DNA from: Candidatus Odyssella sp.
GTDB taxonomy: Bacteria; Pseudomonadota; Alphaproteobacteria; Paracaedibacterales; CAITNM01
Reading direction: 5' to 3'
Assembly (NCBI GenBank): GCA_020726185.1
Contig: DYTB01000003.1
Location: 12,451 to 76,450, forward strand
Length of the DNA: 64,000 bases
A program made the position numbers and the translations under genes. The notes below the pieces were generated by a model. The model searched no databases. It was not told the origin of the DNA and was given only the letters and a program-made list of their open reading frames with translations. This document shows, in pieces, positions 34,841 to 38,962 of this stretch. Positions within the stretch are counted from its first letter, which is position 1. The number at the start of each line of letters is the position of its first letter.

Positions 34841-35021
34841 GATGATTTTTCAAAAGATTCCTTCATTCATTATTTCAAATGCCTGCCAAAAAACAAGAGG
34901 GAAGAGTCAATTAACCACATTATAATAGTTTTTTAATGTATTGAACGCGTTAGAGACAGATGAGGTTTTTGATTATGTTTTATTATTAGTCGCAGTTTAT
35001 TTGATCATTATGATAATACTG

Positions 35022-35107
35022 ACTGGATCCCCACGCCCTTTTCAAGGGCTCAGGATGACAATGTTCCCCGTCTTCATGAGGGGCCAACGACGACGTAATG
35101 ATCCAGT
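35022..35107. repeat. Palindromic REP/RPE-like doublet (two opposed 38-nt arms)
   Basis: Arm 35022-35059 (reverse complement GTCATCCTGAGCCCTTGAAAAGGGCGTGGGGATCCAGT), 10-nt spacer, degenerate arm 35070-35107. Confidence 0.8.
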
Positions 35108-35132
35108 GGAGTAATTTTTTATTACAGAAACT

Positions 35133-35166
35133 AAAAATCCCCAGTCAGAACGAACTGACCGGGGAT
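35133..35166 (-). terminator. Rho-independent terminator of beta-helix paralogue A
   Basis: Minus strand ATCCCCGGTCAG-TTCGTT-CTGACTGGGGAT-TTTT; duplicated at 37693-37726. Confidence 0.8.
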
Positions 35167-35193
35167 AATTGTAGTAACTATTAGTTCAGAAAA

Positions 35194-36006
35194 TTATAGA
35201 GCTGTACCAACAGTGATAGCGCGAGCCCAAACCGCTCCGTTACCTAATTTTAAAGTTGAACCTGAGTCAAACTTCAAGCTACCTTCTGATGCTGAACCGT
35301 TCCAATGGTTGAAGAAGTCAGTGTTAGCACCAACTAAAGCAGCAGCATATGCAGGAACTGATACGCTAGCATCTACCAAAAGTGTTGCGCCAGACTGAAT
35401 CTCATTTACACCAGCACAGTATCCACCAGACATAGCTGATTTTAATTCTAGAATACCAGCAACAGTCACAGCAGGTGCGCTTGCAGCAGGCATTTTATCG
35501 CCAGATGCAGCACCAACTGCTACAGTAGCAGCTGACTCAATAACCATAGCTGAAGTACCTGCAGATAAGTCACCACCAATAGTTAGCACTTTGCTTGCAG
35601 CTGCGCCTACTGTTAGAGCCGCACCAGAAGGTGCACCCACTAGACTAGTGTCAAGAGTACATAAAAGTTTACCAGCTGTAGTCATAGTAAGAGCTGGAAC
35701 TGAAGCACTAGCTGCATTAATTTCAAGAATGTTATTAGCATTTGTATCAAAAGTTACTGCAGCTGGCATAGCGTTTGCCGCGTTAATTTCAACTTGTCCG
35801 TTAGATAATGTTAAGGCAGTTAGAGAAGCGTTGTTACCAGATAGAATTGCTTCACCAGTACCTATTTTTGATGCTGTTCCAGCGATTGCACCACTAACCG
35901 TTGCAACGTCTGATCCTGCAACTTCAATAACTAGATTTGAAGCAAAACCAGCTGATGAAGCAACAACTGTAAGCAAACCCAATGTCAATTTTTGAATAGT
36001 TTTCAT
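35194..36006 (-). CDS. Secreted beta-helix (autotransporter-passenger-like) protein, paralogue A
   Basis: ATG 36006 with AAGGA RBS; signal peptide MKTIQKLTLGLLTVVASSAGFA; KIGTGEAILSG PATR-like repeat; A/G/T/V-rich beta pattern; no C-terminal barrel. Confidence 0.7.
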   Translation of the reverse strand: MKTIQKLTLGLLTVVASSAGFASNLVIEVAGSDVATVSGAIAGTASKIGTGEAILSGNNASLTALTLSNGQVEINAANAMPAAVTFDTNANNILEINAASASVPALTMTTAGKLLCTLDTSLVGAPSGAALTVGAAASKVLTIGGDLSAGTSAMVIESAATVAVGAASGDKMPAASAPAVTVAGILELKSAMSGGYCAGVNEIQSGATLLVDASVSVPAYAAALVGANTDFFNHWNGSASEGSLKFDSGSTLKLGNGAVWARAITVGTAL

Positions 36007-36169
36007 AATGTAATTCCTTTTCAAATATAAAATGGTTAAAACTAATAACAATTATTAATTTATATTATTGAGGTTAATAAAAGGTTAATTATTAGTAATA
36101 AAATTACTTGAAGAGTGATTATTATTTTGATATACATTATTTTATTTATTGAAATACGGAATTTATAGA

Positions 36170-36305
36170 ACTGGATTCGGTGGTCAAGCCCACTAGATTT
36201 ATATAGCGGAATTGTTTGACTGGACCCTCACGCCTGCGTTGCAGGCTCAAGGAGACGGTGGGGCGGCGTCATCCTGAGCCCTTGAAAAGGGCGTCGGGAT
36301 CCAGT
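36170..36305. repeat. Palindromic REP/RPE-like cluster
   Basis: Half-element CTGGATTCGGTGGTCAAGCCCAC (36170-36193) plus doublet 36219-36256 / 36268-36305; the last arm matches the reverse complement of 35022-35059 at 37/38 nt. Confidence 0.8.
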
Positions 36306-36347
36306 GAATGATATTCATTACTATAAAATCCAATGAATCTATGCAAT

Positions 36348-36465
36348 TATCTTTTCTTAAAGAAACTCACTAAGAAAAAATATACGTCTATCTTTTCTTT
36401 AAATAGTTGACTAAGAAAGAATAACCATTTATCTTATTCCTTAATAGTGTCATAAAGAAAAGATA
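36348..36465. repeat. Three tandem ~41-bp palindromic repeats upstream of fic
   Basis: TATCTTTTCTT-N13-AAGAAAnnATA units starting at 36348, 36389 and 36430; the third ends at the base before the fic ATG. Confidence 0.75.
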
Positions 36466-37638
36466 ATGCTTAATAGTAGAATTGGCACATACGCAAATCA
36501 TAATATTGCAGGTGAGATTTATAGGTCTTACATTCCCCATAAATTACCGCCCAAACCCGATATTGACCTAACAGTCTTGCACTCTAAATTAGAAAAAGCG
36601 AATCAGTCTTTGGGGGAACTAAATGGTATCGCCAAAACAATTCCAAACGCAGCGCTTTTCACATACATGTATGTGCGAAAGGAGGCATTACTGTCATCTC
36701 AAATAGAAGGAACGCAAAGTTCATTTTCTGACCTTATATTGTTTGAAAATAGCCAAAAACCAGACATTTCAATTGATGATGTTGAGGAAGTTTCTAATTA
36801 TGTAAAGGCCCTAAATTTTGGCTTGAGCCAATTGCAAAAAGGTTTTCCATTGTCTCTGCGTTTGCTGCGTGAAATTCATGGAATTTTGTTACAAGGAGGC
36901 AGAGGCGCTAAAAAACAACCAGGTGATTTTAGGACATCTCAAAATTGGATTGGTGGTACAAGACCAGGGAATGCTTTATTTGTATCTCCTGCTCCTGAGC
37001 ATTTAATGACAGCATTGAGTGATTTTGAAAAATTCTTGCATGATAAACAGTGCAATTTGCCCATGCTTGTTAAGGCTGGTCTTGCTCATGTGCAATTTGA
37101 AACTATTCACCCTTTTTTGGATGGTAATGGGCGTTTAGGCAGATTGCTAATTACTTTATTACTTCACGAATGGGGAATTCTCAACGAACCAATTTTATAT
37201 TTAAGCTTGTATTTAAAGCAAAACCGCCAGATGTACTACGAGCTTTTGCAAAGAATGCGAGTAGATGGTTGTTATGAGGTGTGGTTAGAGTTTTTTTTGG
37301 ATGGAATCTTGCATTCAGCAACGCAGGCCATAAACACTGCGCATCAATTAAATGCTTTATTTGAAGAGGATCTTGCTAAAATTAACGCACTTGGACGAAT
37401 TAAATATTCTTGTATCAAAGTGTGGGAATACATGAAAAAACTACCGCAAGTAACAGTGCCATTATTATCGCCAGCACTAGGGATGAGCGCGCCTACAGCC
37501 AGAAGTTGCTTAAGTATTTTAGCTGAAAAAGGAATTTTAAAAGAAATCACCGAAATGCAGCGAGATAAAATATACGTGTACAAAAACTATTTGTATGTCT
37601 TAGAAAAAGGAACTGATCCGTGTGGGGCTTCCCTATGA
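36466..37638 (+). CDS. Fic family protein (Fic_N + Fic + C-terminal wHTH)
   Basis: Canonical HPFLDGNGRLGR, inhibitory SSQIEG motif, PGDFRTSQNWIGG, C-terminal HTH-like segment. Confidence 0.95.
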   Translation: MLNSRIGTYANHNIAGEIYRSYIPHKLPPKPDIDLTVLHSKLEKANQSLGELNGIAKTIPNAALFTYMYVRKEALLSSQIEGTQSSFSDLILFENSQKPDISIDDVEEVSNYVKALNFGLSQLQKGFPLSLRLLREIHGILLQGGRGAKKQPGDFRTSQNWIGGTRPGNALFVSPAPEHLMTALSDFEKFLHDKQCNLPMLVKAGLAHVQFETIHPFLDGNGRLGRLLITLLLHEWGILNEPILYLSLYLKQNRQMYYELLQRMRVDGCYEVWLEFFLDGILHSATQAINTAHQLNALFEEDLAKINALGRIKYSCIKVWEYMKKLPQVTVPLLSPALGMSAPTARSCLSILAEKGILKEITEMQRDKIYVYKNYLYVLEKGTDPCGASL

Positions 37639-37692
37639 TTTGTTGTTTAACAACAAGAAAGCGGGTATCCATAATGATAAGTATCAATAATA

Positions 37693-37726
37693 AAAAATCC
37701 CCAGCTAGAACGAACTGACCGGGGAT
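37693..37726 (-). terminator. Rho-independent terminator of beta-helix paralogue B
   Basis: Copy of 35133-35166 with two substitutions. Confidence 0.7.
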
Positions 37727-37754
37727 AATTGTAGTAACTATTAGTTCAGAAAAA

Positions 37755-38543
37755 TTATAGACCTGTACCAACAGTGATAGCGCGAGCCCAAGTAACACCA
37801 TTACCTAGTCGTAGAACAGCTCCTGAGTTGAATTTTAGAGTGTCATCAGGATCGTTGCCGAACAAGTCTCCCGAATCACCAGCTGCAGGTACTGTAACGC
37901 CATCAACCACTTTAAGTACGCCAGCACTTTGAATTGTGGTAATGCCAGGAACACATTCTGCAGCGGGGCTTGCTAAAATTTCTAGCATACCACTAATAGT
38001 GTGAATACCATCAGTAGATTTGTTCCCAGCGCCACCAACTTGCAAATTAGCAAGTGTATCTACTGTTATTGGAGTAACAGATGTACCCATGTCAGCTGCA
38101 ACAACAAGATTTCTGATAGAAGTAAGACCATCTATAGTTAGAGTTGCAGCGCCAGCAGGAGCAGCAGCCCATGAAAGGCTAGCAACGTTTAACAAGACTT
38201 CTCCGCTTGCAGACATAGTAAGGGCAGGAAGTGCTACTGTAGCATTGTTAACCTTTAGAATGTTATCTGCATTTAAATCAAAAGTAACTGCAGATGGCAT
38301 GCTTGATGCACCAGAAACGTTGAATTGACCATCAGTTAATTGCAAAGCAGCAGATACAGCACCTGAAACGTTAGCAATACCATTACCAATTTTCTGAACT
38401 GTGGCAGCTGTAAGTGCGCCAGTAACATCTGCACTTTCGCCTAATGTTACAACGTCAAGAACTAGAGTTCCAGAAGCAAAGCCTGATGTTGCAGTAGCTA
38501 CAACCGTAAGTAGACCCAATGTCAATTTTTGAATAGTTTTCAT
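37755..38543 (-). CDS. Secreted beta-helix (autotransporter-passenger-like) protein, paralogue B
   Basis: ATG 38543 with AAGGA RBS; same MKTIQKLTLGLLTVVA leader and WARAITVGTxL end as paralogue A; collinear interior. Confidence 0.7.
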   Translation of the reverse strand: MKTIQKLTLGLLTVVATATSGFASGTLVLDVVTLGESADVTGALTAATVQKIGNGIANVSGAVSAALQLTDGQFNVSGASSMPSAVTFDLNADNILKVNNATVALPALTMSASGEVLLNVASLSWAAAPAGAATLTIDGLTSIRNLVVAADMGTSVTPITVDTLANLQVGGAGNKSTDGIHTISGMLEILASPAAECVPGITTIQSAGVLKVVDGVTVPAAGDSGDLFGNDPDDTLKFNSGAVLRLGNGVTWARAITVGTGL

Positions 38544-38723
38544 AATATTATTCCTTTTAAAAATAAGATTCATACAAATTAATAGTTAGTATTGACACCA
38601 ACTATAGTTAAATATAAATACTTAATATTAATAATTAATAAATATTTTATTAATATAAAGTAAATATATAAATGAAATTATTACGGATTATTACTGTATT
38701 TATTTTTTATTGTGAATTTCTAT

Positions 38724-38826
38724 CGTTTGGCTACGCCAAACGGCTATGCCGTTGCGAGAGCCATAGGAAAATTCGAGAAGATGCCCCAACTACAGTTTCC
38801 CCTATGGCTTGACCATAGGATCCACT
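38724..38826. repeat. Palindromic REP/RPE-like mosaic
   Basis: CGTTTGGC-TAC-GCCAAACG (38724-38742) and CCTATGG-CTTGA-CCATAGG-ATCCA (38801-38824), the latter sharing the GCTTGACC loop and GGATCCA end with the other elements. Confidence 0.65.
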
Positions 38827-38962
38827 GAGTAATTTCCAGATACTTGAGTAATAAATAAAAAGATTAATCTTTATATGTACGGTGACTGCACCATAAACCA
38901 CGCAGCCATTTTTAAGTTGGGCGTTTACTTATTGGTAAGGTTTACTATGTACTATAAGACTT

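Follow-up and report, generated by a model that had tools for sequence, protein, structure and literature searches.

The window analyzed here is a 64,000-nt stretch of a Candidatus Odyssella sp. genome (contig DYTB01000003.1, positions 12,451 to 76,450; G000:C26:12451-76450 in our numbering), from an assembly of 1.54 Mb in 53 contigs with 38.9% GC. Between its pyk and rpoN genes, two genes for short proteins, here called A and B, stand on either side of a fic gene (Table 1). They are members of a multi-copy family specific to Candidatus Finniella, the genus name on the public metagenome-assembled genomes (MAGs) bearing it, and their products are predicted to be Sec-exported, single-domain β-solenoids. 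The explanation that we think rather probable is that this is a slotted family with exchangeable cores, swapped by homologous recombination through conserved ends. Each slot between rpoN and pyk would have its own upstream region; the start of the leader, the tail, the 3′ untranslated region (3′UTR), and the terminator would be common to all, and a core of roughly 700 nt would be the exchangeable part. Cores could be replaced, added, or deleted by recombination via the ends, whether the partners are strains or, occasionally, two loci within a genome. Strains that are near-identical would in consequence differ in their repertoires of an exported protein that evolves fast and is probably exposed at the surface.

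The ends of genes A and B are far more alike than their bodies. Their first 30 nt are identical (ATGAAAACTATTCAAAAATTGACATTGGGT), one more than had been counted initially, and positions 35133-35230 and 37693-37790, which hold the last codons, the 3′UTR, and the terminator, agree at 94 of 98 nt, with a single 1-nt indel, essentially the 95/98 first reported. Within these segments the 61-nt non-coding 3′UTR, terminator included, is 97% identical. The whole proteins are 42% identical (E 3e-48), and synonymous divergence (dS) in the core is about 0.9, near saturation. Given the codon usage of the genome, the chance that all synonymous codons would agree is about 1.4e-4 for the leader peptide KTIQKLTLG and about 1.6e-5 for the tail WARAITVGT..L. 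Because such agreement is improbable, the identity of the ends exceeds what shared peptides would lead one to expect, and their similarity is more than chance. In the terminator of gene A, a GC-rich stem of 12 bp precedes a U-run (z = -5.8). A scan of the island with Rfam gave two sub-threshold chance matches only, and the conserved 3′UTR appears to represent no known RNA family.

The island was compared with those of five other strains: SRP (L013), HRS (L015), ELA (L021 and L025), GROS21 (L026), and L030. The flanks are co-linear in all five, at 96.4-97.7% nucleotide identity, and it is the contents that differ. With cores clustered into types at ≥60% identity, leader and tail excluded, the genome of the window (OWN below) has the order T3 - fic390 - T4, in which T3 is gene B, in slot 1, and T4 is gene A, in slot 2. 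The GROS island reads T5 - T4 - Gp49/HTH - Fic459 (HTH, helix-turn-helix), and that of HRS is T5 - T6 - Gp49/HTH - Fic459. Strain L030 has T3 - T17 - T13 - Gp49/HTH - Fic459, SRP has T3 - fic390 - T8 - T9 - T13, and ELA, whose slot 1 is lost at a contig end, has fic390 - T11 - T15 - Fic459. Cores of different types are only 20-40% identical; the orthologue of gene A in GROS21 metagenomes is at 88% identity.

Such a pattern could be imitated by chimeric MAG contigs, if strain mixtures were collapsed at the repeated ends during assembly. The data are all metagenomic, several OWN contigs end within family genes, and one mosaic homologue (P0005, see below) comes from a 994-nt contig. Genes A and B themselves lie mid-contig in a contig of 81 kb, and the flanks are co-linear on either side of the island in every strain. 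From four independent assemblies or samples each, the GROS and L030 haplotypes emerged identical, a result that speaks against chimeras, and an assembly artefact seems extremely improbable.

Different segments of these genes have different histories. In slot 2, OWN (T4) and HRS (T6) are 87-100% identical from about -200 to +55 relative to the start codon and 93-100% identical over the last 40 nt and the 65-nt terminator, while the cores between are at about 50% identity and effectively unrelated. The body of gene B is 57-93% identical to its counterpart in SRP, compared with 97% for the adjacent fic and 95-100% for the upstream region. When five segments were tabulated separately, the upstream 150 nt grouped by slot (93-97% or 89-93% identity within a slot, about 65% between slots), the cores grouped strictly by type, and identity in the 62-nt 3′UTR was 90-100% throughout. 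For the 75-nt leader, OWN T3 shares 96% identity with HRS T5 and 93% with GROS T5, and only 83% with other T3 genes. The tail of a further OWN copy, T12, matches OWN T4 at 59 of 63 nt vs 50-53 of 63 for its own orthologues, and is best read as a short intragenomic conversion tract. The metagenomic homologue P0005 is 87-90% A-like past residue 90 and 50-59% before it; since its source contig is 994 nt, this mosaic is weak evidence. The mosaic interiors for which a strain comparison had been suggested are thus present, both as mosaic genes and as cassette swaps between conserved ends.

The cores also change much faster than their neighbors. Pairs of same-type cores have non-synonymous divergence (dN) of 0.07-0.18, dS of 0.17-0.33, and ω (dN/dS) of 0.30-0.94; for rpoN, pyk, lptG, and fic in the same strains the values are 0.003-0.012, 0.06-0.17, and 0.02-0.10, respectively. 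Amino-acid change in the cores (dN) is thus 15-40 times that of the neighbors, and dS is 1.5-3 times higher. A core dS above that of the flanks suggests alleles older than the surrounding genome, as would be expected under recombinational import or under balancing or diversifying selection.

Several observations weigh against exchange through the ends, or limit it. The 3′ ends group by type or slot and not by genome (mean differences 10.1 vs 14.5), from which it follows that continuous homogenization within a genome is not the dominant process and that core exchange between conserved ends is. General within-genome concerted evolution of the 3′ ends was considered as well, and is unsupported by the distance table. 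Positive selection was not evident, with ω below 1 in most pairs and the sole pair at 2.3 non-significant (binomial p = 0.057). Simple purifying selection could account for ends that are conserved across strains, and the haplotypes could stem partly from differential deletion in a larger ancestral array; deletion from such an array would still be recombination between conserved ends. A protist host offers no obvious selective agent for classical antigenic variation. The Pfam PATR model (PF12951, gathering score 27 bits) does not match A or B even at E ≤ 1-10, and the genomes compared are all MAGs or metagenome contigs.

Some of these points could be combined into an account in which recombination has no role. 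Purifying selection would then maintain the signal peptide, ribosome binding site, folding nucleus, and terminator, and the rest would come from differential loss out of an ancestral tandem array and relaxed constraint in a decaying endosymbiont genome. The grouping of 3′ ends and the mostly low ω fit it, as do the pseudogenized members (such as one at C38 with an in-frame TAA) and the arrays of three to four genes in some strains. It does not fit the agreement of synonymous codons and 61-nt 3′UTR between paralogues whose cores have diverged to a dS of about 0.9, the grouping of the OWN T3 leader with T5 leaders, or the match between the OWN T12 and T4 tails. Nor does it fit the core dS, by which the alleles would predate the genomes carrying them, or the fact that 10 of 13 genomes of 1.1-1.7 Mb have retained the family, at as many as 22 matches, and we regard it as quite unlikely. 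Recombination through conserved ends, by comparison of the sequences, is supported at the level of strain populations. To that extent the recombination or gene conversion proposed in the initial annotation stands, along with the one local conversion tract; ongoing within-genome homogenization as the main force does not.

Table 1. Features of the pyk-rpoN island (positions in the window; dot, no strand assigned)
Feature	Position	Strand	Remarks
Hypervariable island	34990-38839	.	pyk side ≤34989, rpoN side ≥38840; flanks conserved, contents differ
Palindromic RPE/MITE-like element at pyk edge of island	35005-35120	.	Inverted repeat I1 pairs with 36268-36314
3′UTR and intrinsic terminator of gene A, conserved	35133-35193	-	90-100% identity across gene types and strains
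Gene A (core type T4, slot 2)	35194-36006	-	270 aa; open reading frame and translation; predicted exported barrel-less β-helix protein
Slot-2 upstream region of gene A (ribosome binding site, promoter region)	36007-36200	-	In strain HRS the same region precedes core T6
Second palindromic element, inverted, upstream of gene A	36190-36320	.	Folds at -52 kcal/mol, z = -3.5
fic	36466-37638	+	390 aa; Pfam Fic_N (PF13784) 1e-27, Fic (PF02661) 2.3e-18
3′UTR and terminator of gene B, conserved	37693-37754	-	Stem weakened by 2-nt change
Gene B (core type T3, slot 1)	37755-38543	-	262 aa; open reading frame and translation; predicted exported barrel-less β-helix protein
Slot-1 upstream region of gene B	38544-38708	-	93-97% identity in all strains, whether core T3 or T5

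Both proteins begin with a leader of Sec type, assigned by reading the sequence (MKTIQKLTLGLLTVVA..GFA, then S), and in mature form they are acidic and consist of about 70% A/G/S/T/V/L. A Pfam scan gave no match to the autotransporter barrel (PF03797) in either, in agreement with the leader, composition, and lack of a barrel noted at the outset; no other model matched A or B in scans with Pfam and NCBIfam. Protein A ends in VGTAL and B in VGTGL, directly after the last solenoid coil (residues 270 and 262). This C-terminal end (...GNGAVWARAITVGTAL) has no PEP motif, hydrophobic helix, or Arg cluster. The last coil would be specific to the family, with the form ...L(K/R)LGxGxxW(A)RxI(T)VG(T)AL-COOH.

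AlphaFold2 models built from family alignments are all-β for both proteins (pLDDT 85.1 for A and 91.4 for B, pTM 0.86 for each), with disorder confined to the signal peptide. Short strands recur every 9-10 residues, which would give coils of about 19 residues. In the model of B, the better one, the C-terminal motif forms the last coil of the solenoid (pLDDT 89-97). Foldseek comparisons of both models with the PDB had only β-helices as top matches (tapirin, TibA, Ag43, MpAFP, pectate lyases, tailspikes), none of them significant (best E 0.14, TM-score ≤0.35), and a search of the viral library BFVD returned nothing significant. A profile search against PDB sequences had no matches at E ≤ 10. The predicted models thus support the β-helix fold class, as had been proposed from the sequence, yet suggest no specific structural relative.

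The two paralogues recognized initially are real, and they undercount the family. A profile search of the OWN genome had 12 family matches. A third short copy (T12) lies outside the window at G000:C26:1698-2438, with one mismatch in the leader and five in the 98-nt end, and there are at least eight further members or fragments elsewhere in the genome. NHL-repeat fusions are found at C46, C38, and C11, and variants of 376-399 aa at C34 and C38; C19 has a short divergent copy, and C25 and C33 have fragments at contig ends. The member at C38:4583-5647 (-) is broken by an in-frame TAA (...IYAGITM-stop-LHAWTG...), and is likely a pseudogene or an assembly error. Contigs end within family genes at C38:1, C11:1, C25:14621, and C33:11640; with the assembly breaking at family repeats, the true copy number is probably above the count. 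The NHL fusions have their own class of 3′UTR and terminator (TACTTATTAAGTTTGGTTGGTCCCGCGGTC...GGCCGTGGGA), for example at G000:C46:6635-6700 and in L017-L020 and L022-L024, which is kept across paralogues and strains and parallels that of the short genes. What was found, then, is more than two copies, mosaic interiors, and β-helical predicted structures, where the initial annotation had named two copies only, uniform divergence without mosaicism, or a fold other than the β-helix as results that would speak against it.

A search of 62 genomes of the order covered 13 of the genus in addition to OWN, and 10 of these had the family, at 1-22 matches per genome; it has been retained in such numbers despite genome sizes of 1.1-1.7 Mb. 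There were no matches in the sister genus, and in the rest of the order just two partial ones to giant proteins. A word-index search had 41 homologues. A HMMER profile search of 1.84 billion representatives had 711 proteins, of three kinds. The first are full-length matches of 230-310 aa with the leader M(K/R)x(I/F)Q(K/R)(L/I)TLxLL and the end ...L(K)LGxGxxWxRxIxVGxx. In the second, the same C-terminal domain is placed after NHL β-propellers. The third are remote proteins of 1.5-5.9 thousand amino acids, each with 10-40 matched stretches, covering profile positions of about 22-190. These giants hold 9-18 Pfam PATR repeats, match the family profile at E 1e-35 to 1e-134, and have either an autotransporter barrel (PF03797) or a PEP-CTERM-like tail at their end. 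The homologues have no annotation beyond “hypothetical protein”, and the family is not mentioned in the literature on Finniella and Paracaedibacteraceae or in a 2025 review of the Holosporales. By these searches the family appears to be undescribed, genus-specific, and multi-copy.

The PATR-like character originally ascribed to A and B holds at the level of profiles. The PATR model itself does not match them, scores 14-18 bits on the NHL-fused paralogues, under its gathering score, and has a precomputed match in one homologue (P0024). With Pfam PATR under threshold on A and B, “PATR-like” is valid at superfamily level only. The resemblance of the C-terminal motif to a degenerate PATR repeat (GSTLKLGNGAVWARAITVGTAL vs GxLxLsGxNtYtGgTtVnaGtL) was by eye, and the candidate was dropped; Pfam had no match on C-terminal peptides at E ≤ 10. 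In common with PATR-type passengers of type Va autotransporters (AIDA-I, Ag43, and TibA-like), the family has a Sec leader, an Ala/Gly/Thr/Val-rich β-helix with coils of roughly 19 residues, and K-x-G-x-G-x-L-x-L-S-G. Its profile matches them at E down to 1e-134, and TibA and Ag43 are among the top, non-significant, fold matches. Unlike them, Finniella family members have neither linker nor 12-stranded barrel and consist of a single domain of 230-310 aa, with a leader and a C-terminal coil of their own and with PF12951 below threshold or absent. Barrel-less PATR proteins with PEP-CTERM tails, which are among the remote profile matches, share the combination of a PATR-type β-helix with a non-barrel end. 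They differ in being very large and in having a PEP motif, a transmembrane helix, and an Arg-rich tail, whereas the Finniella proteins stop at VGTAL. The family would thus descend from PATR-type autotransporter-passenger β-helices, with the barrel absent, and appears to be a miniaturized derivative of them with a third kind of ending.

That ending could matter more as protein than as DNA. The leader and the C-terminal ...WARxITVGTAL strand may be a dedicated biogenesis signal, for export, outer-membrane anchoring, or head-to-tail polymerization (for example into a fibril or coat with NHL-propeller-tipped variants), in which case conserved nucleotides would largely follow as a by-product. The idea does not conflict with exchange of cores and shifts the emphasis to protein function. 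The leader motif and the C-terminal end are the only invariant blocks among proteins whose cores are 20-40% identical, and also across the wider profile family. The C-terminal motif is always at the extreme C-terminus, forming the very last residues of short and NHL-fused members alike, and in the fusions the domain, as the C-terminal module, is placed as a stalk or anchor would be. Proteins related in the repeat region carry known sorting modules (the autotransporter barrel, PEP-CTERM) at the same place, and the genome encodes two secretins and two Omp85 proteins, one BamA-like and one TamA-like, that would be available; no TpsB was detected in it, in a search that lacked a positive control. 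On the other side, the AlphaFold2 models show the motif as an ordinary, confident last coil, for which a folding cap suffices, no partner gene is linked to the family, and the long NHL members have a different leader. As the primary explanation for the ends, a biogenesis signal is possible, if on the unlikely side. An extension of it is unlikely: the invariant leader and terminal coil would define a new Finniella-specific route to a surface structure, combining Sec with export by a secretin or Omp85 protein and with docking or polymerizing ends. The autotransporter barrel and PEP-CTERM would thereby be joined by a third solution, in which the exchangeable cores form a strain-specific coat, with NHL-propeller fusions as its functional tips, that faces the protist host.

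A split autotransporter was also considered, with barrel-less passengers crossing the outer membrane in trans via a mini-autotransporter barrel or TamA/BamA and docking by their terminal β-strand. We know of no trans system of this type. The derivation of the family from autotransporter-passenger repeats and the presence of BamA-like and TamA-like Omp85 proteins would suit it, as would the one PF03797 barrel gene of the genome (G000:C49:27182-28524, -; L034), whose passenger is very short, about 100 aa. This mini-autotransporter gene is unlinked to the island, and every one of the 14 genomes of the genus has it, also the three that lack the family, so that the two show no specific co-occurrence. 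In the OWN genome it is split by a frameshift (137 + 317 aa) with the family intact; elsewhere in the genus it is intact, at 355-433 aa. Its presence in all 14 genomes and the frameshift led us to reject the split autotransporter, which is very improbable.

Under the preferred explanation, exchange of cores through the ends, the ends would be kept for two non-exclusive reasons: biogenesis, with the terminal coil as folding nucleus, cap, or docking strand and the leader for export, and use as homology arms. After Sec export, the proteins would arrive at the cell surface or in the medium, and there meet the selective agent, which could be host recognition, phage, or competitors.

Variable genes of similar design are known elsewhere. 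The Bab and Hom paralogues of Helicobacter pylori have near-identical ends, a divergent middle, and strain-dependent locus occupancy, and Bab chimeras have recombination points 60-240 bp from the start codon as well as in a 3′ homology region (PMC4552749). The Finniella family likewise has near-identical 5′ and 3′ ends around a divergent middle, slots that differ between strains, and chimeric genes. Bab proteins, in contrast, are β-barrel-anchored adhesins of a human pathogen with CT-repeat phase variation; on the Finniella side is a barrel-less solenoid of a protist endosymbiont, with no repeat-tract switch seen and with recombination supported at the level of strain populations. The msp2/p44 genes of Anaplasma are multi-copy, with conserved 5′ and 3′ ends around a hypervariable core, in a small intracellular alphaproteobacterial genome. 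They have a single expression site fed by truncated silent pseudogene cassettes, whereas the Finniella copies are all complete genes, each equipped with a promoter-like region, a leader, and a terminator of its own. In being a lineage-specific, expanded, fast-evolving family of β-helical exported proteins in an obligate intracellular bacterium, the chlamydial Pmp proteins resemble the Finniella family. They differ as full autotransporters, which have a barrel and repeats of the GGA(I/L/V) and FxxN kinds.

The fic gene between A and B is island cargo and not a constant partner. At 96-97% identity it is also present in the SRP and ELA islands. It is missing from those of GROS, HRS, and L030, which have a different Fic and a HigB/HigA-like pair instead, and on these grounds Fic was rejected as a functional partner. 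This Gp49 (HigB-like)/HTH pair and the 459-aa Fic lie next to pyk at L015:6824-9067, L026:6952-9117, and L030:9476-11641. The OWN genome has neither, and its sole Fic is the 390-aa protein, of class II. The translation has an active-site motif HPFLDGNGR (HPFLDGNGRLGR) that fits the HxFx(D/E)GNGRxxR pattern of Fic/DOC AMPylases, and an inhibitory motif, SSQIEG. Its score against the NCBIfam SoFic equivalog is 157.9 bits, under the cut-off of 550. Directly upstream of the fic start codon are 41-nt tandem direct repeats (D8, 36348-36429, in a region spanning 36348-36465), which may be an operator array. A sigma-70 scan gave 13 sites vs 12.9 in shuffled sequences, no excess. No sigma-54 box was seen, by eye only, so the adjacency to rpoN looks coincidental.

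Of the palindromic element near gene A, about 100 nt long, the genome contains 22 copies. A family gene is within 600 bp of seven of them, compared with 0.33 expected under random placement (maximum 3 in 2000 trials), and the element is usually 125-185 bp upstream of the start codon. An inverted pair brackets gene A (35013-35059 and 36268-36314), and the edges of the island adjoin such elements, which may mark or promote its rearrangements. Other copies are at G000 C11:1692, C34:5666, C34:7442, C38:1374, and C38:5769.

The protist symbionts among the Holosporales are uncultured, and to our knowledge their surfaces are almost unknown. In about 1.5 Mb, the OWN genome maintains at least ten copies of a single undescribed family of predicted exported β-helix proteins, some of them at the most variable site between two housekeeping genes. 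These island genes are what differs most between strains with flanks of about 97% identity, which makes the family a prime candidate for an interface facing the host, phage, or competitors. The family should be useful as a strain-typing marker, and it offers a natural case of an autotransporter-type passenger having dispensed with its barrel. While the variable-gene design is familiar, the protein family building it is undescribed. If its conserved ends turn out to be a sorting or assembly signal, they would be a new ending among the few routes by which Gram-negative bacteria deploy β-helices.

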